DNA of 64,000 bases from Candidatus Poribacteria bacterium. GTDB lineage: Bacteria; Poribacteria; WGA-4E; WGA-3G. A program made the translations under genes and the position numbers. Below are positions 35,031-48,982 of the stretch, in pieces. Below the pieces are notes generated by a model that did not search any database, was not told the DNA's origin, and was given only the letters and a program-made list of their open reading frames with translations. Positions within the stretch are counted from its first letter, which is position 1, and each line of letters opens with the position of its first letter. The stretch lies in assembly GCA_003635255.1 (NCBI GenBank), contig PYJC01000068.1, forward strand, positions 8,258 through 72,257, given 5' to 3'.

Positions 35031-36731
35031 TCAATACAACACATGCACGCGGTTTTTCCCACGCACCGTCTCATCTGGCATCGTCATTGGCACCTCAACG
35101 ACAACAATTAACGCGCCATCCTCACTGATCGCAAGCGTATCATAAGGCAGCTGCCCTTCCGTTCGATAGGTGTACAGGTATTTTGATAAACCGCTGCCTT
35201 CCGCCATCAGGTCGAATACTGACACGCCATGGAGGCTCTCATTTGGGTCCTGTGTACGCTTAGAAACAGACAACACGGCGTAACGATCCATTGCATCAAT
35301 ACGTAAACCCTGCGGCATATTCTCAAGTTTCCACTGCCAGATTTTTTCTCCACCCCATGAATAAGCAAATAGCGTCATCGCATTCGGATGTGATGCCGAC
35401 GGTCTTTGCGCCCCCTTCCGGAGATGATACGGGATATAGGTGACCCCGGTAACGAAGAGTGCCGCCGCATCTGTTGCACCAATCGTACCAGCAGTCGCGA
35501 CGACAGGAACACCACTCACCTCCAATGGTGTCGTCAAGTTCTCCTGCCATATCGATTCCGACTTGTTCGTATCGAAAATGAACGCACGACCATCGTCCGC
35601 TGTTACGTTTATGAATTTACCGTCGGCTGACATGCTGACCCCCCGCCAAAACGTGACCTGTGGGAAATACTCGCGCAGCGGTTCAATATCCGCTTGCCAC
35701 TTTTCCGCGCCGTCTTCCGCGTTAAGAACAACGAGTTTTCCGTTACCAGCATCATTTCCATCGGTTGCGCTCCCTTGTAGATTATGTCCCGCATCTGCTA
35801 CGAGGGCGAGTGTTTTCCCGTCAGCACCTACATCAAACCAGCGTATTATCTTCCGAGTCGCACCGTCGCGCGGCCATTTCCAGATAACATCTCCGGTTTC
35901 ACTGTTAAACCTATAAAGTTGCGATTTCTTAACCGGCACCTCGTTTTGTTTCCACGAATGCACACCCGCAACCAATAGGTCCCCGTTCGCCAATGTTCGC
36001 ATACATGATGGACCAGGGTAACTGACCCACGCAAAGTTGCTGTCGGGATTGCTCGGCGTAGAGGTCTCAATGTCATCGGCGGTGCGATATTTCCAGCGGA
36101 GTGTCGGATTCTCAGATGTGAAATCGTAACAATAGATGAACCCGTCTGCCGCCTGCTCACCGATATAGAGCAAGTTACTATCTGGACTGAACACCATTCT
36201 TCTGACATAGCCTTCCGAAATCCGAGTTTTCCAGAGTGTTTCGCCTGTAAGTGCTTGGAGAACTGCGATGTGTCCGCTATCCGTAGCGATTGCCAATTTA
36301 TGGGTAGATGGTGCCTTTCGATGTCCTAAAGCAATTGCGGTCGGTTTCGCGGGTTGACGGAGGCTTTCCATGAGCGACAAAAGTCCATCTAATTCAACCG
36401 TCCGAATAAGGTATGATGTCGGCTTCAGCGGCGAGGTCGTTGTTACTTCGCTATCGTCTAAGCGAAATTGATAATCCTTGTTCGGTTGCCACGTGAATTG
36501 CAGTAGAATGCGATTGGTATCAAGTCGTTGGACTGCGGGTACTTCGGTTAATTCCTGTGCCGTGCCGTTAAATACCATCGCGACATTGATTTTGTCTGAT
36601 ATACCCTCTTTATGTTCAGTTTCAACGACTACGCCTGTCCGAACCCAAGTGACACGCATATCGGCTGTCGAAATACCAATCGGTAAAATAACAAACAGAC
36701 AGAGAAAAGTAAAAAATTGAATTCGCTTCAT
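35031..36731 (-). CDS. Secreted PQQ-like/WD40 beta-propeller protein
   Basis: Signal peptide; repeated TGE.LWK, FSPD, ETG.VIWKW, DG.EKWQ, GEKIWQW blades. Confidence 0.75.
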   Translation of the reverse strand: MKRIQFFTFLCLFVILPIGISTADMRVTWVRTGVVVETEHKEGISDKINVAMVFNGTAQELTEVPAVQRLDTNRILLQFTWQPNKDYQFRLDDSEVTTTSPLKPTSYLIRTVELDGLLSLMESLRQPAKPTAIALGHRKAPSTHKLAIATDSGHIAVLQALTGETLWKTRISEGYVRRMVFSPDSNLLYIGEQAADGFIYCYDFTSENPTLRWKYRTADDIETSTPSNPDSNFAWVSYPGPSCMRTLANGDLLVAGVHSWKQNEVPVKKSQLYRFNSETGDVIWKWPRDGATRKIIRWFDVGADGKTLALVADAGHNLQGSATDGNDAGNGKLVVLNAEDGAEKWQADIEPLREYFPQVTFWRGVSMSADGKFINVTADDGRAFIFDTNKSESIWQENLTTPLEVSGVPVVATAGTIGATDAAALFVTGVTYIPYHLRKGAQRPSASHPNAMTLFAYSWGGEKIWQWKLENMPQGLRIDAMDRYAVLSVSKRTQDPNESLHGVSVFDLMAEGSGLSKYLYTYRTEGQLPYDTLAISEDGALIVVVEVPMTMPDETVRGKNRVHVLY

Positions 36732-37098: not shown

Positions 37099-39030
37099 CT
37101 AATCCGCCACACGCCATAAACCCCGTCCTAATCTCGCACCGAGAAGTACACCGATAAATGTATAGACAAACCCTTCTATCAGAACTCGAAGCACAATATA
37201 CCAATCGGCATAGAAAAGTCGATAGAACAGCATAGAAAGTTGGAAATCGACATAGACAGCGAGCGCGTCGCAGATCCCCAGCACAACAGCCCACGCCAAT
37301 ATACTCCGTCCCCGCACAAACAGGAATCCTGTTTCCAACAGCAAAACACTCGTGCCGGTATAGACAATCGCCATCGGTGTGAAAAGTCCGAACGTAACGC
37401 CGCTAAGCAGTAGACGCACCGCAGAGACAAGCAGGATTACGCCGCTCCCTTTATTGTGCCGTTTCGCGTCGGTGCGATCGGAACTCGTCGGATCCCCGTT
37501 AATATAAATTAGCAAGGCAGTCAGCAAGGCGTAATAGAGCGTCTCATTAATCAAACCACTCACCAGCACAGAGATCGGACCGAGGAGCGCACTGATTAAG
37601 TTGAGGAACAGCGTTGACGGGACCATCACCGCTACAAAAACCGTCGTACCGAACAGCGAGATCACAATAATCTGTTTTGTTGTAAAGCCCGAAAAAATTC
37701 GCTCGTGAAATCGTCCAACGATCGCAAAGCCGATACTACTGCTAATAATCGCCAATAGACTAATGAGCAGCGCTTGTTGGTTTGGAACGACCAAGTGTAG
37801 TGGACGTTGTTCGCGCAGAATCGTCGCGTCACTGCCCCAAACTTTCACCGCAATATCACGCATATACGCCCCAGGGATCGCCTGTTCTGGCTCACCTTGC
37901 CTCATATATACTGGATGAAAATAGATAGGCAGTGGGATCTCCGTAACCACTCCCGCCGGTAGGCTCGCAAACGCTATGCTCCGATTTGTACCGCCGTTCG
38001 TTGTTTCTGGAGGCGCGAGAAACGCAACAGTTGCACCACTCTTCATATCTGTGTTGACCGATGAGACGACCACATGGATCGTCTCTTCACCCGTATTCCG
38101 TAGCCGTATGGCCTGATAGGTCATCGGTTCAAACGCATTCGTCGGTGGTGTTCCGAGCCAACTGAATAATGGACGCGCATGGTAGATAGTATCTTCTCGC
38201 TGTCTCGGGTCCACTATCCCTGTTGCATCTGTAGGCATCTCAATCGATGCTATGGAGAGGTGCTCGGCGATCTCTGGAACAGTTGCTATCCGCAGCTGCA
38301 CCCTTGCCTGCTGCTCCCACATCTGCCCTGTATCTGTTCTGAAACGAGCAATACCCGAAATTTCTTGATTATCCGTTTGGCTCACCTCGGATGTCTTCAA
38401 AACTAACTCCCGATACCAAACTTCCGAGGCAACCTTAAATCTGTCCGTCGTCGAGAGACAGGTCTCCCCGCCGACTATTTCACTTTTCCAGTCTGCAGGT
38501 GATCTAACAATAGTTAACGTCCGGGGCAAGCAGAGTTTGAGATCAAAAGTTGTTGGGACATTCCCGTTTGTAACGAGAACTGTGGCTGTCATTTCGCTTT
38601 CGTGCAAAACAAGTGCCTTTTGATTGCTACCCGACACATTTTCCGGATCCGACTGCATCGCAGCACCGTACGGAATAGCAATGTCCAAGTTTCCTTGTGT
38701 GTATACGCGCGGCGCGGTTACCCTTTGCTTATCAACGCTTCCTGTCGACAAGATCGCTTCAAATCTATAGGTCTCTCCCGCATCCCATTCAAAATAGAGT
38801 GGCTCTGTCTGCCGAGGTGATGTAGGGAAGTTAAGTTGTGCGACCATTACATCGTCCGCATTAAAAGCGTTCAGACGCTGGACCGGTGCTTCTGCACTGA
38901 ACTGCACCTTGGCACCCAACGAAAAGAACGTCACTTTCCATGAAAGTGGTTCCTCTTTGGAGGTTGAAGCACAACTGATTAGGAAAATGAGCAGTGACAG
39001 GCACCAGACTGCTTTTTTTATCGCTGTCAT
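37099..39030 (-). CDS. Lipoprotein-signal protein with large extracytoplasmic region and C-terminal multi-TM domain (ECF S-component-like)
   Basis: Lipobox LLIFLISC; about 400 aa soluble region; then about 6-7 hydrophobic helices from F.TKQIIVISLFG to GVLLGARLGRGL. Confidence 0.65.
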   Translation of the reverse strand: MTAIKKAVWCLSLLIFLISCASTSKEEPLSWKVTFFSLGAKVQFSAEAPVQRLNAFNADDVMVAQLNFPTSPRQTEPLYFEWDAGETYRFEAILSTGSVDKQRVTAPRVYTQGNLDIAIPYGAAMQSDPENVSGSNQKALVLHESEMTATVLVTNGNVPTTFDLKLCLPRTLTIVRSPADWKSEIVGGETCLSTTDRFKVASEVWYRELVLKTSEVSQTDNQEISGIARFRTDTGQMWEQQARVQLRIATVPEIAEHLSIASIEMPTDATGIVDPRQREDTIYHARPLFSWLGTPPTNAFEPMTYQAIRLRNTGEETIHVVVSSVNTDMKSGATVAFLAPPETTNGGTNRSIAFASLPAGVVTEIPLPIYFHPVYMRQGEPEQAIPGAYMRDIAVKVWGSDATILREQRPLHLVVPNQQALLISLLAIISSSIGFAIVGRFHERIFSGFTTKQIIVISLFGTTVFVAVMVPSTLFLNLISALLGPISVLVSGLINETLYYALLTALLIYINGDPTSSDRTDAKRHNKGSGVILLVSAVRLLLSGVTFGLFTPMAIVYTGTSVLLLETGFLFVRGRSILAWAVVLGICDALAVYVDFQLSMLFYRLFYADWYIVLRVLIEGFVYTFIGVLLGARLGRGLWRVAD

Positions 39031-39043
39031 TATTTTCCCCAGG

Positions 39044-39395
39044 CCGGTAGGTGCGGTTTGATGAAGTTTAATTATTTAAATCGGTAATTCTGATCGCTTT
39101 TCTGTCTGAATCGCGGAAGGCACAGAGGACACCGAGGACGCGGAACTAAGAGATTGTTTTCTTTCCGCCCACATCTCTTAGGAAGTGCCATGCAGAATTT
39201 AGCGTCGCCTTTTCCGCGTTCTCCGCGTTCTCCGCGCACTCCGCGATTCAGACGACAAGATAACGCACCTCACACAAGAAAACATAAACAAGATATCTAT
39301 GATTCGCAAATTACCGATTTATTTAATCTTCATCAACCGCACCGGACTGCCCCAAAGAATTACCGAATTAATTTTTTAATCTTCATCAAACCGCG
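39044..39395. mobile_element. Nested repeat composite: REP-like palindrome interrupted by ATGAAG...CTTCAT element containing a 9-mer-repeat hairpin
   Basis: gtaggtgcggtttg|atgaag...cttcat|caaccgcacc; inner gtctgaatcgcgga...tccgcgattcagac with tccgcgttc repeats; second right end at 39358-39386. Confidence 0.65.
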
Positions 39396-39409
39396 CTGCA
39401 GATGCTAAG

Positions 39410-40735
39410 TTAAAGTCCTTGTCCTATCAGCACCAGATCAAGGATATTCACCACTTCGTCACCATTAACATCGGCGATGATACCAGGTCCCTCATCACCC
39501 AAGAACCGAGCTGCAATTACCAAATCTGACGCATTGACAAACCCGTCGTTGTTTAGGTCTTCGCGGCGCGGTATAATCGTTGCGAACTCCAAATTATTGG
39601 CACCGTGACCAACGTGATAGGATCGTAAAAGTGACGCATCTGCCACGTCCATGACGCGAACGTAATTCTGTCCGCTGCCCCCCCAGTCAGGTTGTGTGAT
39701 ATAGAGACTTCCATCTGGCGCAAAGGTCAAGCCGCCACTGACAGATGTATCTGCATCGTTGCTGAAGTTGGCAATCGTGTTATCTTCGTCACGGATCCAG
39801 TCTCGCGCGACGATATCGTAGATAAGCAAGCCGGGGTTTCGCCAACTGCCTTGCATAAACAACTGTTTTTCTGAATTGAGAGCGATGGAACCGGGTGTGA
39901 AATCGAGTTTAACCGTTTCCACTACCTCATCAGTATTCGCATCAATCAGAACGAGATGCCCGAGGACATCGTTGTAATTGCCTGTCGTCTTAACAATAAC
40001 AGTCGATTCACCATCGTTGAGGATTTGACCCGCGTTCGTCGGTACCGGAATAGATTTCAATATGATATCTGTCTCTGTATCAATCACTGTGACACTACTA
40101 TCATAATAACTTACTCTCCCGGCAACGGGATCCCACTCCCATGCGGGGTTCGAGACATAGGCTTTGCCGTTGAGAAGCGTGATACCCGTCGGTTTGTTGA
40201 AAGAACCCGTGAGGACCTTCGTCACATTGCGATTCGGAATGTCAACGACATGCACCTCATGCGCCGCGGCACACGTAACGTATAACTTCTGATCACTGAC
40301 CAAAGCGACCTGCTGTGGGGTTGTACCCGCTTCCATCGGGATTTCGCCAACAAACTCTCGATCTTCCAAGTTAATAATCAAAATATTGTCACCGGAACTC
40401 ATTCCACCCGTGATAGGTAAGTTGAAACTCGTGACATAGGCGAGATGCCCGTGAACAGAGAGACCAATTGCCCGCCGCCGCAATCTCGGAGCAAAGCCGA
40501 TGGAGAGTATCTCGTTGTCAACAGCCTGTCTCTCATTTGGCTCTTCCAGATCAATGAGTGAAACTGAGGCGATGATGCCCAAATCCGGATGCGTCAGCGC
40601 ATTTATGACAACAGCCGTGTTCGCCTCTTCTGTTTGTCCTAAAGCAGGATTAAGGGTGAGAGTGAAAAGGATCGCGCCTATAAACAGGAGCGAATAGCGC
40701 GAGAAATGTCGCCAAGTGAAAAAAAATCTGTTCAT
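39410..40735 (-). CDS. Secreted YncE-like beta-propeller protein with C-terminal dockerin-like domain
   Basis: Signal peptide; blades KLYVT, KAYVSN, VTVIDTETD, TFAPDGSLYIT; tail DLNNDGFVNASDL...DVNGDEVVNILDLV; GGAGG RBS before ATG 40735. Confidence 0.8.
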   Translation of the reverse strand: MNRFFFTWRHFSRYSLLFIGAILFTLTLNPALGQTEEANTAVVINALTHPDLGIIASVSLIDLEEPNERQAVDNEILSIGFAPRLRRRAIGLSVHGHLAYVTSFNLPITGGMSSGDNILIINLEDREFVGEIPMEAGTTPQQVALVSDQKLYVTCAAAHEVHVVDIPNRNVTKVLTGSFNKPTGITLLNGKAYVSNPAWEWDPVAGRVSYYDSSVTVIDTETDIILKSIPVPTNAGQILNDGESTVIVKTTGNYNDVLGHLVLIDANTDEVVETVKLDFTPGSIALNSEKQLFMQGSWRNPGLLIYDIVARDWIRDEDNTIANFSNDADTSVSGGLTFAPDGSLYITQPDWGGSGQNYVRVMDVADASLLRSYHVGHGANNLEFATIIPRREDLNNDGFVNASDLVIAARFLGDEGPGIIADVNGDEVVNILDLVLIGQGL

Positions 40736-40751
40736 TAAAACCTCCGTAATG

Positions 40752-40790
40752 AAACAAAAAACCCCTGCTTTCATTGAAAAGACAGGGGAT
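40752..40790 (-). terminator. Intrinsic terminator (expression platform of cobalamin riboswitch)
   Basis: Minus strand CCCCTG-tc-TTT..AAA-GCAGGGG followed by TTTTTTGTTT, just upstream of the RBS. Confidence 0.75.
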
Positions 40791-40927
40791 GCGGCGACAC
40801 TCTATGTATGCTAAATCCTGCAATTGTGTCCGAAGATATTGTACCTTACACGGGTTCTTCTATACTAACAGGATACTGCTGCGCGCTGTTCCACCGCTTT
40901 CCCGCGAAAGCAGATGCGTGAAACACG

Positions 40928-41095
40928 ATCCAGGCAGGTCTCCTGACTTCCGATCTTGCGTCCCCTGAACCTTCCCATCAGTTGGTTGACAGTGGTTTTT
41001 TCAGCGGATATTTGTGATCGTTCACAGTGGCGGGGCCGTGGCGGATTCTCACCGCACTTCCCTATTCTCCGGCTTTCTCCGGCACCTGAACCGTT
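40928..41095 (-). ncRNA. Cobalamin (AdoCbl) riboswitch
   Basis: Minus strand: CAGGTGCC...AATAGGGAAGTGCGGTGAGAATCCGCCACGGCCCCGCCACTGTGA...CCACTG...TGGGAAG...AAGTCAGGAGACCTGCC, containing the canonical core and B12-box elements. Confidence 0.93.
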
Positions 41096-41119
41096 AATTT
41101 ATTCTATTGTAATGCATAT

Positions 41120-41148
41120 ATTATATCACATTACGACATTTTTTGCAA
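41120..41148 (-). promoter_or_regulatory. Sigma70 promoter for riboswitch-led operon
   Basis: Minus strand TTGCAA-N17-TATAAT about 25 nt upstream of the riboswitch. Confidence 0.75.
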
Positions 41149-41187
41149 ATTTTTTGCGAAGTGTGGAAAAATAAAAATATAAAAAAT

Positions 41188-41216
41188 TTGACAACACAAA
41201 TTAGATGTGGTATTAT
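41188..41216 (+). promoter_or_regulatory. Sigma70 promoter for leader-hisI-trpE-trpG
   Basis: TTGACA-N17-TATTAT with a TG extended -10 element. Confidence 0.8.
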
Positions 41217-41261
41217 TAATAGCAGTGTTCAAAATCAAATATTTTGTTGAAAGTGAGAAAA

Positions 41262-41363
41262 ATGATACTTGTACGCTCACACTCCAACCCGCATAGCGTA
41301 TCTAACCATTGGCATTGGTGGCGGTCCAGTTGCTTGTGGGGGAGTGTGCGCTCAAACGGATAA
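41262..41363 (+). CDS. Putative His/Trp attenuator leader peptide (33 aa)
   Basis: MILVRSHSNPHSVSNHWHWWRSSCLWGSVRSNG*; control codons CAT TGG CAT TGG TGG at 41307-41321. Below the ORF-track length cutoff. Confidence 0.8.
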   Translation: MILVRSHSNPHSVSNHWHWWRSSCLWGSVRSNG

Positions 41364-41415
41364 CTGAAATAGAGATTGAAAATCGTCGTTTTTCATTTTT
41401 AAGTCCTGTTGAAGC

Positions 41416-41454
41416 CTTATGCACACCGATCCCGGTAGCATAAGTTTTTTTTTT
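41416..41454 (+). terminator. Attenuator terminator
   Basis: CTTATGC-ac-ACCG-atcc-CGGT-a-GCATAAG followed by T10. Confidence 0.85.
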
Positions 41455-41507
41455 GCATAGCTCACAGGTTACCAAAACTTGCTATTGAAAATAAGAGGAG
41501 AATCCGA

Positions 41508-41888
41508 ATGAAAATTTTGTCGGAACTCAAATATGACAGTGATGGCTTGGTCGCCGCAGTCATTCAAGATCGCACAAACAATGAAGTCCTAATGGTCGGC
41601 TATATGAACGCCGAAGCAATAACGGAAACGCTGACAACCGGGCGCGTCTGCTTCTGGAGCCGTTCCCGCCAAAAACTATGGATCAAGGGGGAGACTTCAG
41701 GGCATACACAGACAGTGGAATCTGTCGCAGTCGATTGCGACGGCGATGCCCTGCTCATAAAGGTTGAGCAAAAAGTCGCAGCGTGCCATGTCGGCTATCG
41801 CTCCTGCTTCTTTCGGGAAGTCTCCCCCGACGGAGAGTCAACGCGTGTGGTAGGTGATAAAATTTTCGAGGCTGATACGGTCTATTAG
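41508..41888 (+). CDS. hisI: Phosphoribosyl-AMP cyclohydrolase
   Basis: FWSRSRQKLW.KGETSG, DCDGDALL, ACH.GYRSCF. Confidence 0.96.
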   Translation: MKILSELKYDSDGLVAAVIQDRTNNEVLMVGYMNAEAITETLTTGRVCFWSRSRQKLWIKGETSGHTQTVESVAVDCDGDALLIKVEQKVAACHVGYRSCFFREVSPDGESTRVVGDKIFEADTVY

Positions 41889-42062
41889 ACTCCAAGTTGT
41901 GGGAGGGCTTTGTAAGCCCGATTTCGTATCTTGGCATCCCTTCGGAAGTTATTTGATTTAGTTCACCTATCGTTACTATTTTATACAGATAAGAGCAGTA
42001 TCGCTGCGTGTGGTACTATAGAACGAAAAACTGTGATGCTAAAGGTATGAAAAGGGGTTATA

Positions 42063-43571
42063 ATGTATTATCCGACGTTAGAGGACTTTCGCGAGGCAGC
42101 GAAATTAGGAAACACCATACCGGTATACCGATCAATTCTGGCAGATATGGAGACACCAGTGTCTGCCTTTTACAAGTTGATGCCAGACAATTATGCGTTT
42201 TTGCTCGAAAGCGTTGAAGGCGGCGAAAACGTTGCGCGCTACTCTTTTTTGGGGAGTCAACCCTCAGTGCTTTTCCACAGTAAAGGGCATCAGGTTACCA
42301 TTGAATACCTGGAAAAAGGCGAAACCGTAGTTCAGGAATACGAAGACCCGTTAAGTGCCCTTGAAGAAGTGATGCAGGATTACCGACCTGTTAACAATCC
42401 TGAGTTACCGAAATTCCACGGCGGCGCAGTCGGTTATATGAGTTATGACATGGTCCGATTTGTCGAGGAGCTGCCAGATAATACTGAGGATGAGCTACAA
42501 TTGCCAGATTGCTTCTTCATGATTGCCGAGACCATCCTGATATTTGATCACGTCAACCACCAGATCAAGGTTGTGGCGAACGCGCATATTGATGGAGATG
42601 TAGATACCGCTTATGCCGACGCTATTACGAAAATTGAAGCGTTGGTCGAAAAACTCATGGCTGCTTCCGAACCGCATTTACGCGCCGATAGGGGTGAACA
42701 TCAGGGACGGTATGATAAAATCATAGCCGATCCCCAATCGAATTTCACAAAATCCGATTACGAAGCCGCCGTCAGACACGCGAAGGAATACATAGCCGCA
42801 GGCGACATTATCCAGGTCGTACTTTCGCAGCGGTTCAGTTGTCCGGTATCTGTAGATTCATTTGATGTGTATCGGGCGTTGCGAGTGGTCAACCCATCGC
42901 CCTACATGTATTATCTGAAATTTGATGATTTTGATATTGTGGGGGCATCACCGGAGATGATGGTAAGAGTGGAAGATGGGCTCGTCCAAACGGTTCCAAT
43001 TGCGGGCACACGCCCGCGCGGCACGACTCCAGAAGAAGACAAAGAGCTGGAACGGATACTCCTTGCTGATCCAAAGGAACGCGCCGAGCACGTTATGCTT
43101 GTGGATTTAGGACGCAACGACCTTGGTCGGGTCTGTGAATATCACACTGTTGAAGTCACCGAACTCATGATAGTTGAACGCTTCTCACATGTGATGCACA
43201 TCGTTTCGCACGTTATTGGACAGCTGCGCGAAAATTTTACGGCTTTTGATGTCCTCCGGTCATGTCTTCCCGCTGGCACCCTCTCCGGCGCGCCGAAGGT
43301 ACGGGCAATGGAAATTATTGACGAACTTGAATCTACACGGCGCGGCACTTACGGCGGGGCTGTCGGTTATTTCAGTTTTTCCGGTAGTGCAGACACAGCG
43401 ATTACCATCCGAACCGCGGTTATCAAAGACGGCACCGCTTATGTGCAAGCCGGTGGCGGGATCGTCGCAGATTCAGTACCTGAAACTGAGTACTACGAAA
43501 CTCTCAGTAAAGCGAAAGCAATGCTCAGTGCCATCGCATTGGCTGAAGAACAGTTAGCGGTTTTCAGTTAA
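42063..43571 (+). CDS. trpE: Anthranilate synthase component I
   Basis: LLESVEGG..ARYS (Trp feedback motif), NPSPYM, PIAGTRPRG, KERAEHVMLVDLGRND, GAPKVRAM. Confidence 0.95.
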   Translation: MYYPTLEDFREAAKLGNTIPVYRSILADMETPVSAFYKLMPDNYAFLLESVEGGENVARYSFLGSQPSVLFHSKGHQVTIEYLEKGETVVQEYEDPLSALEEVMQDYRPVNNPELPKFHGGAVGYMSYDMVRFVEELPDNTEDELQLPDCFFMIAETILIFDHVNHQIKVVANAHIDGDVDTAYADAITKIEALVEKLMAASEPHLRADRGEHQGRYDKIIADPQSNFTKSDYEAAVRHAKEYIAAGDIIQVVLSQRFSCPVSVDSFDVYRALRVVNPSPYMYYLKFDDFDIVGASPEMMVRVEDGLVQTVPIAGTRPRGTTPEEDKELERILLADPKERAEHVMLVDLGRNDLGRVCEYHTVEVTELMIVERFSHVMHIVSHVIGQLRENFTAFDVLRSCLPAGTLSGAPKVRAMEIIDELESTRRGTYGGAVGYFSFSGSADTAITIRTAVIKDGTAYVQAGGGIVADSVPETEYYETLSKAKAMLSAIALAEEQLAVFS

Positions 43572-43607
43572 TAGCAACTCTACCTAACCGCAAGGAAAAT
43601 TTAAAAT

Positions 43608-44171
43608 ATGGTTTTAATGATTGATAACTACGACTCTTTTACCTATAACTTGGTGCAGTATTTGGGTGAACTCGGTGCTGAACTCGAGGTCCATCGGAGT
43701 CGAAAGATAGGATTGGATACATTAGACGCACTGGCACCCGAACGGATTGTCATTTCACCCGGACCTTGCACACCGAAAGAGGCGGGTATATCCAACGATA
43801 CTATACAACACTTCGCCGGGAAAATCCCGATCTTAGGCGTCTGCCTTGGGCATCAGTGCATCGGAGACGTATTCGGTGGTGATGTCGTTCGTGCGGATCG
43901 GTTGATGCACGGCAAAACCTCAATGATCCACCATAACGGCACCGAACTCTTTGAGGGATTGGATAACCCGTTTGAAGCGACACGCTACCACTCACTCATC
44001 GTGAAAAAAGATACGTTACCCGATTGCCTTGAGATTACCGCGTGGACAGATCAGGACGAAATCATGGGACTCCGGCATAAGAGTTTGCCTATTTGGGGCG
44101 TACAATTCCACCCGGAATCCATTCTGACAGCCGCCGGGAAAAGTCTACTCAGCAATTTCTTAACGCTATAG
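43608..44171 (+). CDS. trpG: Anthranilate synthase component II / glutamine amidotransferase
   Basis: [35 protein letters not shown]. Confidence 0.93.
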
Positions 44172-44191
44172 ACCAACAGAAAGGTTTAATA

Positions 44192-44950
44192 ATGACAAAA
44201 CAGACAAGTGCTACGCCGGTCTTAGTTTCCTGGTCGTCAGGCAAAGATTCGGCGTGGGCACTTCATACCTTACGCCAACAACCTGAACGCTACGACGTAC
44301 GTGGCATCTTTACGACCGTCACGAAGACGTTTGACCGGGTCTCTATTCATTCTACACCTGCATGGGTACTGAAACAGCAGGCAGAAAAACTCAGCGTGCC
44401 GTTATACGAGATACCGATCCCTTATCCGTGTTCCAACACAATCTATGAGGAGGCAATGCGAAAGTTCCTTGCTGAAGTCAAAGCGTTGCCTGAACATTTG
44501 ACAGCGTCACATTTCGCATTCGGGGACCTCTTCCTGGAAGACATCCGTGCATACCGCGAGGATAAACTCAAAGGCACCGGTTTCACACCAATTTTCCCAG
44601 TGTGGGGAGAGGACACACCGCTACTTGCGCAAAAGATGATTGCTTCTGGCTTGCGCGCTATCATCACTGCGCTTAATCCTACCAAAGTCCCCGCCGACTT
44701 TGCAGGACGATGGTTTGACGCGGACCTCCTCGCAGATTTGCCAGACGGCGTGGATCCACTCGGTGAAAACGGGGAGTTCCATACCTGCGTCGTGGATGGA
44801 CCGATGTTCAGTTCACCTGTCGCCGCGAAACCGGGCGAAGTCGTCCAGAGAGACATCGTCTCTAAAAAGGATAAAGATGACAAAATTCACACAAGCAGCA
44901 ACACGTCACCGACTTATATCTATGCTGATGTGGTACCTATAGATGAATAA
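44192..44950 (+). CDS. Diphthamide synthase-like (MJ0570/Dph6) PP-loop ATPase
   Basis: SWSSGKDS PP-loop, FGDLFLED...YR, DP.GENGEFHT.V.DGP.F. Confidence 0.87.
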   Translation: MTKQTSATPVLVSWSSGKDSAWALHTLRQQPERYDVRGIFTTVTKTFDRVSIHSTPAWVLKQQAEKLSVPLYEIPIPYPCSNTIYEEAMRKFLAEVKALPEHLTASHFAFGDLFLEDIRAYREDKLKGTGFTPIFPVWGEDTPLLAQKMIASGLRAIITALNPTKVPADFAGRWFDADLLADLPDGVDPLGENGEFHTCVVDGPMFSSPVAAKPGEVVQRDIVSKKDKDDKIHTSSNTSPTYIYADVVPIDE

Positions 44951-45593
44951 TTGGAAGAAAGCAGCTGTGCTGTGGACAGGCGGAAAAGATTCCGCACTCG
45001 CATTTCAAGTCTCCTTGAATCTTTACGATATAGGGAGGCTTGTCTGTTTTGTGCCAGCGGACAACCGACAATTCTACGCGCATCCAACGCAACTCATGGA
45101 ACTACAAGCACAAAAGATCGGGATGCCAATTGAATTCGTGCCGATTTCCGAACCCTATAAACAGAGTTACTGCCAACAAATTGAGGCGATTAGAGACAGT
45201 GGTACTGAAGTGTTAATTACCGGAGATATTTCTACTGTCGGTGGGATGCCGAATTGGATAGAGGAAGTCGCAGCAGGTTTGGTGGAAGTCTACAAACCGT
45301 TGTGGGAATCGGATCGGCATACAATATTGGATACCCTCATCGCCAACAAATTTAAGGTCGTCTGTTCCCTCGCTTACAAAAAGCACTTCCAACCGACTAT
45401 TGCCGGTAGGTATTTCGATGCTAAACTCATTTCAGAACTGAAGCAACTCCCAATTGACGCATGCGGTGAACAGGGTGAATACCACACATGGGTATTAGAC
45501 GCACCGTTCTTCAAGGAGTCAGTGCAGTTAGAAGGCACACGTGTAGTTGATGTTGACGAGTATTGCTACCTCACCTACGAACAAGCAATTTAG
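44943..45593 (+). CDS. Second diphthamide synthase-like (Dph6) PP-loop ATPase
   Basis: LWTGGKDS, TGDI, KPLW, DACGEQGEYHTWVLDAPFF; overlaps the upstream paralog by 8 nt. Confidence 0.85.
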   Translation: MNNWKKAAVLWTGGKDSALAFQVSLNLYDIGRLVCFVPADNRQFYAHPTQLMELQAQKIGMPIEFVPISEPYKQSYCQQIEAIRDSGTEVLITGDISTVGGMPNWIEEVAAGLVEVYKPLWESDRHTILDTLIANKFKVVCSLAYKKHFQPTIAGRYFDAKLISELKQLPIDACGEQGEYHTWVLDAPFFKESVQLEGTRVVDVDEYCYLTYEQAI

Positions 45594-45675
45594 CGATGTG
45601 AATTTTGTTGGTGGTAGGTTCTTCTGTATAGGGTCATTTGGTGGAGCTCACGTTATATAGACCTACTCCTATTAG

Positions 45676-46014
45676 TATAATCCAAGTTGTTACTTAAGAG
45701 ATGTTGGTGTTTTTGCTTGGGTGTTTCTTCTAAGCAAAAACGGTATTTCTGCGGATTTCAAAAGCGTTTTCAAGTCCTTTCCTCACCCCGTAGGGGTGCT
45801 ATGTCTATAGAAACGGCATATTTAAGCGACTGCACTCCGTATGAAGTTTAATAAATAAATTGGGTAATTCAGGCCTTGCGACGTGCGATGAATCGCACTA
45901 CTACGAACCGATCTGTTTGTTATCACACGTCCTAAAAATTACCCGATTAAATTCTTCTTAATCTTCATTAGGAGTGCTATGTCTCATAAATAGGTGGCAA
46001 CTTGGATTATTATA
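45676..46014. mobile_element. Nested MITE-like composite (outer TIR ATAATCCAAGTTG; inner ATGAAG...CTTCAT element 45841-45968)
   Basis: ataatccaagttgttactta / taggtggcaacttggattat. Inner element lies within the palindrome gcactcc...ggagtgc and carries the REP-like cgtgcgatgaatcgcactactac. Confidence 0.65.
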
Positions 46015-46075
46015 GAATTATGCACCCGTTTCGCCGTTTCGTGGTGTCACTATAGGGTGAAATCGGAGGTGAGCC

Positions 46076-48982
46076 ATGAAAAACAGTGATGCCCAGTTAA
46101 TCCATCGTGTTCTCAACGGCGATGAAACCGCTTTTTCAGAACTTGTGGAAAAATATCAAAAACAGGTGCACGCACTCGCGTGGCGAAAAATCGGTGATTT
46201 TCACATCGCCGAAGAAATTACACAGGATACATTTTTGAAAGCCTATCAGAAACTCCGAACGCTGAAGAAGCCGCAGCGTTTTGCAAGTTGGCTTTATGTG
46301 ATTGCCACAAACCGCTGCAACACATGGTTGCATAAAAAGCATTTTCGGACGCAGTTATTGAAAAACAAGGGCGGTGCACAACCTAAAAAAGCGTCGTATT
46401 CTGAATATGTCGTTGAAGAAAACGAGCGCATCTCTGTAGAGGCACAACGCGAGGTCGTCAAAAAACTGCTTGCGAAACTTGAGGAGAGCGAACGCACTGT
46501 AATGACGTTACATTACTTCGCAGAGATGTCGTGTACGGAGATCGGCGCGTTCTTAGGCGTATCCGCAAATACGATTAAGAGTCGACTGCGCCGTGCCCAA
46601 CAGCGTTTAAAAAGGGAAGAACCCGTCATAAGAGAGGCTTTAGAGAATTTCCAAATCTCACCGAATCTTACTGAAACCATCATGCGTGAAGTTTCACGTA
46701 TCAAACCGATGCCCCCGTCTTCTGGTAGTAAACCGTTCGTACCGTGGGCAGTTGCAGCTTCCACATTGGCCGTTATGTTGCTCGTACTCGGTTTTGGAAA
46801 CCAACAATACTTCGTGCGCTTTCAGAAACCTTATAGTTTAGATGCGACTTCGGAAATGACAGTTGACATCATTGACGCACCTATCATCGCGAACCTTGAA
46901 TCAAAAATAGATGTGCGGACACAAATAGGAAGGACCAACGCAGTGGGTAAGCGTCATACCCCTAAACAGCAACCTAACGATGCGCCCGCAACAATTGCAG
47001 AGTCACAAACGGAGGAAACCGTGAAAGATTGGACACAATGGGAATTGCCTGAAAAGGCAAAAGCGCGTCTCGGAAAAGGCGGAATCAACGTACTTCAATT
47101 CTCACCGGACGGCACCCAACTTGCCGTAGGCAGTAATATTGCGGTGTGGCTTTACGATGTGGAAACAGGAAAAGAAGGGTCCATGTTCCCCGGTAGGTGC
47201 CAATCCCTCGCATTTTCGCCAGATGGACGATTCCTTGCCCATGGAGGCGATGAGTACAGTGGAAAGGCACTTCAGCTGTGGGAAGTCGCTACCAGACAGA
47301 AAGTGGATCTTCCAGTATTGCAGTTCTCTGCCGCAGTATTGCAGTTCTCTGAGGACGGCAAAACGCTTATCAGTTTGGCAAATCATGGGCACTCAATTAG
47401 ACATTTAGATATTGATACCAAAAAGGGAAATGTGAAGAAGATCAAAGACCAATCTTCACATTTTTCCCCTGCCCCCGATGCACTCACTTACAATAAATTT
47501 GCTGTCGGCAGGAAGGACGGAAGAATTGAGTTGTGGGATACAATAACCGGTGAAAAATTATTCACGCTCAGCGGACATGCGGAACTATCTGCTCATTCTG
47601 AAGAACGCGCCTTCTCCGAGGGATGTGTCTTAGCCTTGGCATTTTCGCCCGATGGAACCCAACTCGCCAGCGGCGGTGGAGACACAACCGTACGATTATG
47701 GAATGCCACCAGCAACGATGAACCGACCATTCTCCACCAGCACCACGAAGGTTGGGTAAATGTGTTAGCATTTTCGCCGGACGGAAAAATGCTTGCAAGC
47801 GGAAGCACCGATAAGACCGTGCTTTTGTCGGATACCACCACAGGTAAACGACTCGCCGCACTCACTGGACATATTAACGGCATTACTGCCCTAACGTTTT
47901 CATCCGACGGTAGTAGGCTTGCAAGTGCAAGTGCAGACGGCACCGTACGATTTTGGGATACCAAGACCGGCAAATCGCTTGCTATGCCTATCAACGGACA
48001 TACACAATGGATAAAGGCGGCTACTTTCTTGAGAGAGAATTCGACGCTTGTTAGCGCGGCATCTAACGGCATAATTACCTTTTGGGATTTAAAAACACCA
48101 CAAAATCCAACGCTTCAGATGGGAGAACATCGGGATTGGTTCAGGAGTTTAGTGTTTTCACCAGATGGCACGAGGCTCGCCAGTATCGGTGTAGAACGTG
48201 CAAACATGATCTTCAAAATAGGGAGTGCCGTTCTTACCTTAACAACACCTGATAACTTGATCCGTTTAACTGACACCCGCACGGGGCATGAGGTAACTTT
48301 GAAAGAGACATCTTCTCCCTCAAATCCAACATTTTCAACTGATGGAAAAATGTTAGCCTTCAGCGGTTCGGATAAGATCCATTTGTGGCATACAGAAACA
48401 GGGCACACACTCGACATTTCCTTCTTTGATCCGAACGATCATCCCGGATCATCTTATCGCCCTGAAATCAGCGCACTGGCATTTTCCCCGGTTAGAAAAG
48501 AACTTGTCAGTTCTACTGAGACAGGAAAAGTTCAAGTATGGGATACGGAAACCGGTGTTGCATTAGCGACCCTTCTTGACGGACAGAATTTGGATGAGTT
48601 CGCAAATACTATTGAGGAACCAATTACAGCATTGACATTCTCGCCAGATGGAACGTTGCTTGCCGTGGGAAGTAATCAACGAATTCGCCTGTTCAGAAGT
48701 GAGAAATATATTGGCATGAAGGAAGAAATACCTCATGGTTCCGAAGTATTGGTATTTTCGCCGGATAATGGCGTGCTTGTGAATGGACGTATAAGTGGCG
48801 ATATCCAGTTATGGGATGTTATAACTGGGAACAAGCTCACCACACTCACCGGACATACAGCTCGCGTGGAGACGTTGAAATTCTCTCCCGATGGGAAAAC
48901 AATTGTCAGTACAGGAGCAGATGGCACAATTCTTTTGTGGGATTGGGAGGAAGTCCTTGAAGGTATAAAGGTAGGAGAATAA
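46076..48982 (+). CDS. ECF sigma-70 factor fused to transmembrane helix and WD40 beta-propellers
   Basis: Sigma region 2 (AF.ELV..YQ...AEEITQDTF..F.SWLY.IA.N), region 4 (EIG.FLGVS.NTIKSRLRRA), hydrophobic segment, many FSPDG..LAS...D.TVRLWD repeats. Confidence 0.9.
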   Translation: MKNSDAQLIHRVLNGDETAFSELVEKYQKQVHALAWRKIGDFHIAEEITQDTFLKAYQKLRTLKKPQRFASWLYVIATNRCNTWLHKKHFRTQLLKNKGGAQPKKASYSEYVVEENERISVEAQREVVKKLLAKLEESERTVMTLHYFAEMSCTEIGAFLGVSANTIKSRLRRAQQRLKREEPVIREALENFQISPNLTETIMREVSRIKPMPPSSGSKPFVPWAVAASTLAVMLLVLGFGNQQYFVRFQKPYSLDATSEMTVDIIDAPIIANLESKIDVRTQIGRTNAVGKRHTPKQQPNDAPATIAESQTEETVKDWTQWELPEKAKARLGKGGINVLQFSPDGTQLAVGSNIAVWLYDVETGKEGSMFPGRCQSLAFSPDGRFLAHGGDEYSGKALQLWEVATRQKVDLPVLQFSAAVLQFSEDGKTLISLANHGHSIRHLDIDTKKGNVKKIKDQSSHFSPAPDALTYNKFAVGRKDGRIELWDTITGEKLFTLSGHAELSAHSEERAFSEGCVLALAFSPDGTQLASGGGDTTVRLWNATSNDEPTILHQHHEGWVNVLAFSPDGKMLASGSTDKTVLLSDTTTGKRLAALTGHINGITALTFSSDGSRLASASADGTVRFWDTKTGKSLAMPINGHTQWIKAATFLRENSTLVSAASNGIITFWDLKTPQNPTLQMGEHRDWFRSLVFSPDGTRLASIGVERANMIFKIGSAVLTLTTPDNLIRLTDTRTGHEVTLKETSSPSNPTFSTDGKMLAFSGSDKIHLWHTETGHTLDISFFDPNDHPGSSYRPEISALAFSPVRKELVSSTETGKVQVWDTETGVALATLLDGQNLDEFANTIEEPITALTFSPDGTLLAVGSNQRIRLFRSEKYIGMKEEIPHGSEVLVFSPDNGVLVNGRISGDIQLWDVITGNKLTTLTGHTARVETLKFSPDGKTIVSTGADGTILLWDWEEVLEGIKVGE

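Follow-up and report, generated by a model that had tools for sequence, protein, structure and literature searches.

A putative leader-peptide attenuator with interleaved His and Trp codons upstream of a hisI-trpE-trpG operon in Candidatus Poribacteria

The leader and the operon behind it

The Poribacteria are an uncultivated, sponge-associated candidate phylum, and the 64,000 nucleotide (nt) stretch of DNA analysed here (the window) comes from a Candidatus Poribacteria metagenome-assembled genome (MAG). Its plus strand carries an operon that begins with the histidine gene hisI and continues with the tryptophan genes trpE and trpG. Between the promoter and hisI lies a short leader that encodes a peptide with interleaved His and Trp codons and ends in an intrinsic terminator; this leader, a putative transcription attenuator, is the main subject of this report. 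The features of the locus are as follows.

41188 to 41216, plus strand: sigma-70-type promoter, TTGACA-17-TATTAT, with TG before the -10 hexamer; 11 of 12 consensus positions match
41262 to 41363, plus strand: leader peptide open reading frame (ORF) of 33 codons with four His and four Trp; ATG at 41262, TAA at 41361-41363
41278 to 41285, plus strand: segment 1, CACACTCC; paired with 41341-41348 in the minimum free energy (MFE) fold of 41225-41460
41307 to 41321, plus strand: control codons CAT TGG CAT TGG TGG, encoding His-Trp-His-Trp-Trp (HWHWW); read directly
41341 to 41349, plus strand: segment 2, the 5' strand of the antiterminator, with GGAGTGTG at 41341-41348; complementary to segment 1
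41416 to 41454, plus strand: intrinsic terminator, hairpin at 41416-41444 and ten T residues (T10) at 41445-41454; read directly and supported by folds
41508 to 41888, plus strand: hisI, phosphoribosyl-AMP cyclohydrolase (PF01502, 124 bits; NF000768, 173 bits against a cut-off of 126)
41889 to 42062, plus strand: hisI-trpE spacer of 174 nt with a weak hairpin at 41905-41919
42063 to 43571, plus strand: trpE, anthranilate synthase component I (TIGR00564, 600 bits against a cut-off of 518)
43608 to 44171, plus strand: trpG, glutamine amidotransferase component II (TIGR00566)
44093 to 45593, plus strand: two adjacent PP-loop ATPase-like genes after trpG, Diphthami_syn_2 family (PF01902, 77 and 103 bits)
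45708 to 45742, plus strand: terminator-like hairpin of 14 pairs, the likely end of the operon

A previous reading of this DNA from its letters and open reading frames (the sequence-only reading) had described the promoter, the 33-codon HWHWW ORF, three RNA segments and the T10 terminator, and direct reading finds every one of them where it had been placed. Segment 3 is the GCACAC at 41421-41426 within the 5' arm of the terminator, and it is complementary to the GTGTGC inside segment 2. A purine-rich stretch lies 6-10 nt upstream of the leader ORF. The promoter has the highest score among ten promoter-like sites in positions 40700-46200 (shuffled sequences averaged 7.8 sites), and transcription would start a few bases past its -10 box. 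A TTGACA box at comparable spacing is also visible in the printed upstream regions of the leaders of other families. The same promoter scan lists no plus strand promoter-like site in the hisI-trpE spacer, which in other families is about 11-85 nt long.

The profile matches bear out the assignment of the downstream genes as hisI, trpE and trpG. As a description of the operon these three genes were incomplete, since the sequence-only reading omitted the two PP-loop genes at 44093-45593, which are probably co-transcribed with them and would make it an operon of five genes. The Pfam match of the first PP-loop gene begins at residue 43 of the listed ORF, and its true start is uncertain; the second (44943-45593), the only one of the two covered by the NCBIfam scan, has weak Dph6-like matches that fall below the NCBIfam cut-offs. 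The hisI gene is the sole copy found in the window's genome (82% complete), and trpE is the sole chorismate-binding enzyme found there. The trpD and trpC genes are together on another contig, where no homologous leader was found, and hisD is beside aroA, also on another contig. The HWHWW leader thus precedes one gene of the His pathway and two of the Trp pathway, and its codons match the pathways of the operon.

Contigs assembled from RNA libraries of relatives (85-99% likeness; four runs from three studies) cover the leader. One of these, of 1260 nt, spans the leader, hisI and the start of trpE, and another, of 289 nt, crosses the terminator into hisI. Because they are assembled and DNA may have been present in the libraries, they are only a weak hint of transcription and show neither RNA ends nor a single transcript; the reduced depth over hisI and the lack of cover in the spacer are given no weight.

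Distribution and codon content of the leader

An exact-pattern motif scan of the genomes of 185,579 species (one genome per species) matched 23 stretches, 17 of which are in Candidatus Poribacteria MAGs. The other six were rejected as chance matches; they lie inside long open frames and have no hisI, trpE or trpG nearby. Upstream of hisI, an ATG-started short ORF with a Trp/His cluster, followed by a terminator, is present in all of the relatives' loci that have upstream sequence (29/29). The aligned leaders have an invariant ATG (29/29), all alignment indels are multiples of three, and the segment 2 core G.AGTGTGC is likewise identical in 29/29. Little or no variation is seen in these two elements, in the control codons or in the terminator's 5' arm, and the stop codon is always close to segment 2. 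At locus L012 both substitutions in segment 1 retain pairing through G-U (alignment read by eye). A terminator is present, by the search rule used, in 44 of 47 leaders.

A covariance model, R1, built from 44 leaders matches 144 of the 151 phylum genomes searched and 18 of 22 genera. Together with the 29/29 recurrence of ORF, codons and terminator, this is more than chance would give. The phylum-wide R1 search gave no match in genera g9 (0/2 genomes), g7 (0/1), g8 (0/1) and g27 (0/1), and weak matches were seen for g7 and g27 in another search. With filters off, R1 found no leader in loci L100 and L101 (g9), L068 (g8), L080 (g20) and L084 (family f7). The last of these had only 182 nt of upstream sequence, and such loci are counted as "not found" rather than absent. 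R1 did match one of the two g20 genomes, G045, which is the source of L080, so that copy must lie outside the stretch examined for L080. Three loci of family f4, genus g7 (L065, L067 and L093) gave weak matches of 21-27 bits with short or odd ORFs and were excluded from the counts.

Two irregular copies were seen. In genome G080 the attenuator upstream of hisI may have been duplicated in tandem, since contig 1 has a head-to-tail pair of R1 matches at 4527076-4527437. In L027 (genome G016) the 5' arm of the terminator differs at the bases meant to pair with segment 2 and hisI has one in-frame TGA, which reflects either decay of the unit or an assembly error.

The gene order hisI-trpE-trpG was found in 9/9 loci of one set and 12/19 of another, among families f1-f6, f8 and f9. 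Within the genus of the window (24 loci) the control cluster is HWHWW in 21, YWHWW in two and HWHRW in one, and the central His between Trp codons is present in 24/24. Eighteen further loci from nine genera (a comparison that excluded L073 and L095) have WHWW in 16 cases, WHWRW in one and WYWW in one, so that WHW is kept in 17/18; the position of hisI between leader and trpE is confirmed by coordinates for four of these 18, and in the remainder the spacing fits. The Trp residues W17, W19 and W20 of the leader peptide are at least 90% conserved. The sequence-only reading had proposed comparison of hisI upstream regions as a check, and the leader ORF and its His/Trp cluster indeed prove to be conserved well beyond the genus. 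For His this is true of the central codon, so that the lack of His conservation which that reading named as refuting it is not seen there, but not of the first, which is often replaced.

Outside these arrangements the clusters of other families include HHWHWWW, HxWHWWH, HWHWWHH, HHHWCWWH, WRHWHWR, WWWHWRGH and GHWHWGW; the His/Trp composition is maintained while the arrangement varies among families. Leaders of genus g25 have three to four His and one Trp, and the exceptional locus L081 has a lone His two codons ahead of its Trp run.

Another class, represented by families f10 and f11, has homologous leaders in front of a different set of genes, as follows.

Before trpE-trpG: FWRWWW and NWCWWW
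Before trpS-trpE-trpG: TWCWW
Before trpS alone: IWRWW
Before ADH-synthase-trpC (aroA'-trpC): FWRWYWRFY, YWRWYWRF and FWRWWWRFYY

No His codon is present in any of the three trpE-linked f10/f11 leader peptides, and the trpS-linked leaders have no His near the Trp cluster. The aro/trpC leaders have Phe and Tyr codons beside the Trp codons. We note that the f10 and f11 genomes G041, G042 and G043 (loci L126-L130) have three paralogous Trp leaders each, one ahead of trpE-trpG, one ahead of trpS and one ahead of ADH-synthase (archaeal-type aromatic pathway) and trpC. Elsewhere in f4 genomes there is a second, distant hisI-like gene (40-42% identity; L069-L071 in G033, G030 and G027) that lacks an upstream leader; it is the only hisI match found in genus g4, where trpE has no hisI in front.

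Many genomes of the window's genus also contain orphan paralogues of the leader (113-134 bits), in which the terminator and both segments 1 and 2 are preserved but most of the control codons are gone. The orphan of the window's own genome is on contig 87 at 35382-35603 (L120, 483-704); it scores 113 bits and carries an insertion. A scan of the same genome for Trp/His-rich short ORFs followed by a terminator gave five candidates, of which only the hisI leader is convincing; that scan was blind to the orphan, which has no Trp/His cluster, and it was R1 that found it. Orphans are also present in G002, G001 and G007 (L121-L123). They precede unrelated genes, among them those for a sigma-54 activator, an LD-carboxypeptidase and a DUF5916 protein. 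The orphan peptide is near-identical in three species, indicating that the orphan copy is old or constrained, and it might act as a small RNA. Because orphans keep the RNA fold without the control codons, the HWHWW bases are not needed for that fold. At hisI-trpE, HWHWW has been kept over a much deeper divergence than that over which the orphans decayed, which points to selection on the codons themselves.

Predicted ribosome-dependent folding and the amino acids probably sensed

Covariation was examined in alignment A2 of 44 leaders, and both stems of the proposed switch, for which the sequence-only reading had asked for such support, covary. The terminator helix is paired in 93.9% of 479 cells, and seven of its 11 pairs change on both sides. 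Its covariation score of 0.400 compares with 0.191 for shuffles (0/500 reach 0.400) and with 0.22 or less for slid controls. The antiterminator core is a 7 bp helix between alignment columns 132-138 and 219-225. Summed over its individual pairs, about 94% of cells are paired, and at four pairs both bases vary; of the 44 leaders, 23 have G-U at pair 138:219, 19 have C-G and two have U-G. The whole 12-pair antiterminator helix is only 65% paired, as the proposed outer pairs are lineage-specific and mostly unpaired elsewhere.

The predicted fold of the window's leader depends on where the ribosome is. In partition-function folding with the ribosome footprint masked, the probability of the terminator is 0.99 with no ribosome, 0.01 with the ribosome stalled at the first control codon, 0.00 with it stalled at the last, and 0.99 with it at the stop codon. 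Direct folds agree with the masked folds. The fold of the full leader has segments 1 and 2 paired with each other and the terminator in place; in the stalled state (MFE -32.8 kcal/mol) segment 2 pairs with the terminator arm at 41421-41426; and with the ribosome at the stop the terminator forms. Among same-genus leaders the stalled-state terminator probability is below 0.2 in 20/23.

The element is very probably a classical ribosome-mediated (leader-peptide) transcription attenuator, which would operate as follows. The 33-codon leader would be translated, and with ample charged tRNA-Trp and tRNA-His the ribosome would reach the stop codon and cover segment 2 (41341-41349), so that the terminator at 41416-41454 forms and transcription stops before hisI. 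If the ribosome stalled at HWHWW (41307-41321), segment 2 would be left free to pair with 41421-41426 and neighbouring bases, and transcription would read through. In the absence of translation segment 1 would pair with segment 2 and the terminator would form. Since the His codons are interleaved with the Trp codons at one stall site, shortage of either amino acid should give read-through, an OR gate that fits the mixed operon. From the anatomy, conservation and folding we infer that the leader ORF is translated, that ribosomes stall in it, and that the response is to His as well as to Trp. That one leader senses both shortages is likely, a claim that we hold with moderate confidence, and a number of observations weigh against it, or against the switch as drawn.

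The first concern the leader itself. Its Shine-Dalgarno sequence is only moderate (GAGA), and outside the genus the stalled-state terminator probability is below 0.5 in only 2/21 leaders. The alternative folding in the sequence-only reading is therefore predicted for the window's leader and most of its genus but for few leaders elsewhere. No thermodynamic switch is claimed outside the genus, where the terminator is favoured at equilibrium in 19/21 stalled folds, and only kinetics could let the antiterminator win there; in these leaders 6-14 bases of the 5' arm (at least 8 in 20/21) are already paired while the 3' arm has yet to be transcribed. The leader was also not found in g9 and g8, although hisI and trpE are adjacent there.

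The remainder concern the His codons. They are few, one to four per leader, and Y, N or D stands in place of the leading His of HWHWW in most g13 leaders, with replacements in 2/24 of the same-genus loci as well. Among hisI-linked leaders L111 has WYWW, and L062 has lost both His and Trp codons. Genus g4, of the main class with trpE first, is mixed: L072 has no His, L073 and L074 have one each, and these leaders look decayed. About two evolutionary events, one of them the mixed g4 case, underlie the association of hisI with His codons in these related genomes.

The main rival reading is that the leader senses only charged tRNA-Trp, through its three tandem or near-tandem Trp codons, and that hisI is merely co-expressed while the His codons are passengers, present through neutral Arg-to-His change or for reasons of peptide or sequence context. 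It is the Trp codons that form the invariant part of the cluster (W17, W19 and W20), the first His being the one often replaced, and the WRWW and WCWW leaders of the sister class have no His, from which it follows that the ancestral element was a Trp attenuator. Moreover, one transition (CGU to CAU) turns WRWW into WHWW, and the central His may represent a neutral change that became fixed in the ancestor of the class, another point against dual sensing. Few regulatory codons also go with low sensitivity, according to a paper in which the his and trp attenuators are compared (PMC1183508). We nevertheless regard a Trp-only leader as less likely than dual sensing, though more likely than the alternatives below. 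The central His has been retained across the hisI-bearing class (24/24 and 17/18), whereas orphans in a single genus quickly lost His or its neighbours. The flanking His codons are arranged differently from family to family, which indicates selection on composition rather than descent of one inherited base, and His is lacking in the three trpE-linked leaders that have no hisI.

The leader might instead be an RNA switch that works without translation, or one that binds a protein or tRNA (of the T-box, TRAP or riboswitch type), its ORF being coincidental. Its RNA segments are highly conserved at the nucleotide level, and the orphans keep the RNA and not the codons, as such a switch would have it. 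An Rfam cmscan of positions 39000-46500 with 4227 models, at E values up to 1, found no Trp_leader, His_leader, other leader, T-box or riboswitch match in the leader; its only returns were a minus strand cobalamin riboswitch (see below) and a chance miRNA match. The ATG is invariant, the indels are frame-preserving and the stop codon is always near segment 2, the codon composition tracks the content of the operon, and ribosome position predicts the fold, all of which make this reading very improbable. Nor can we give much more than a token chance to a nascent-peptide mechanism like that of TnaC, in which WHWW itself, and not tRNA shortage, would halt the ribosome from within the exit tunnel. 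The motif is conserved and its His could be part of an arrest sequence, but if free Trp induced the arrest, the Trp genes would be turned on in Trp excess, which is the wrong direction; the residues that flank the cluster vary freely, and the architecture is unchanged in sister leaders that have R or C where His would stand.

Leader-peptide attenuation with sensing of both His and Trp, the reading that we prefer, can be compared with several known systems. The E. coli trp attenuator has a short ORF (trpL) with adjacent Trp codons, 1:2, 2:3 and 3:4 pairings and a terminator before trpE, and ribosome position sets its fold. The Poribacteria leader shares the short ORF, the adjacent Trp codons, the alternative pairings, the terminator and, by prediction, the ribosome-position logic; it differs in its interleaved His codons, in having hisI as the first gene, in matching no Rfam model, and in that its segment 1 is upstream of the control codons and does not contain them. 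The leader peptide of the his operon attenuator, hisL, has seven consecutive His codons. The His codons of the Poribacteria leader would similarly serve as a sensor of charged tRNA-His, but there are one to four of them, interleaved with Trp, and a single his gene would be controlled while the others are elsewhere. Multivalent attenuators are known from enterobacteria, where the thr leader has Thr and Ile codons and the ilv leader Ile, Leu and Val codons, and shortage of any one of these relieves termination. To our knowledge such leaders combine amino acids of one biosynthetic family, all of which are served by the enzymes of the operon. The Poribacteria leader resembles them in having codons for more than one amino acid, and it is unlike them in pairing amino acids of unrelated pathways ahead of a chimeric operon, which takes one gene from the His pathway and two from the Trp pathway.

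The trp genes of Sinorhizobium meliloti are at split loci, and only the trpE(G) unit has a leader-peptide attenuator (trpL/rnTrpL); all its regulatory codons are for Trp, and once released its RNA acts in trans (PMC6614838). The window's genome is similar in that only the trpE-trpG unit has the putative attenuator, trpD-trpC being elsewhere with no leader found, and it differs by the addition of His codons and hisI. According to a 2010 survey, which added Firmicutes, leader-peptide attenuation had been documented only in Proteobacteria and Actinobacteria (PMC2965389), and a survey of Actinobacteria reports trp, cys and branched-chain leaders and none for his (PMC1262725). The sequence-only reading knew of no described His+Trp leader, and a literature search agrees with it, having found neither such a leader nor any account of attenuation in Poribacteria in openly searchable full text, which leaves out most subscription journals; a prior description is possible.

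Taken more broadly, the leaders could all be one homologous family whose codons have been re-programmed to the genes behind them: Trp codons alone where trpE or trpS follows, Trp codons joined by Phe and Tyr where the aromatic/trpC genes follow, and Trp codons joined by His once hisI had been inserted in front of trpE. The His/Trp form would then be the first cross-pathway multivalent attenuator, an OR gate for two unrelated amino acids, and the orphans may be trans-acting RNAs like the rhizobial trp attenuator RNA. We judge this whole proposal to be about evenly poised between right and wrong. If attenuation by the leader peptide is the case here, a textbook mechanism is extended to an uncultivated candidate phylum, and a His+Trp leader at the head of an operon mixed from his and trp genes would demonstrate that the regulatory codons of a leader can change to follow the shuffling of genes. 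Homologous leaders with differing codon sets, along with orphans that lack the codons, would constitute a natural experiment on the evolution of a sensor. The element would also offer a compact design for a two-input RNA OR gate, and its recognition would improve the annotation of about 140 Poribacteria genomes.

Neighbouring features of the window

The cobalamin riboswitch found by the Rfam scan is at 40916-41104 on the minus strand (113.8 bits, E 1e-28), divergent from the hisI leader promoter. It precedes a 454 amino acid gene (39410-40774, minus strand) whose product has a dockerin domain and a weak match to DUF5074 and may be a B12-regulated surface protein. Farther downstream, positions 46076-48982 encode a eukaryote-like protein of 968 amino acids with many WD40 repeats; eukaryote-like repeat proteins have been reported for sponge symbionts.

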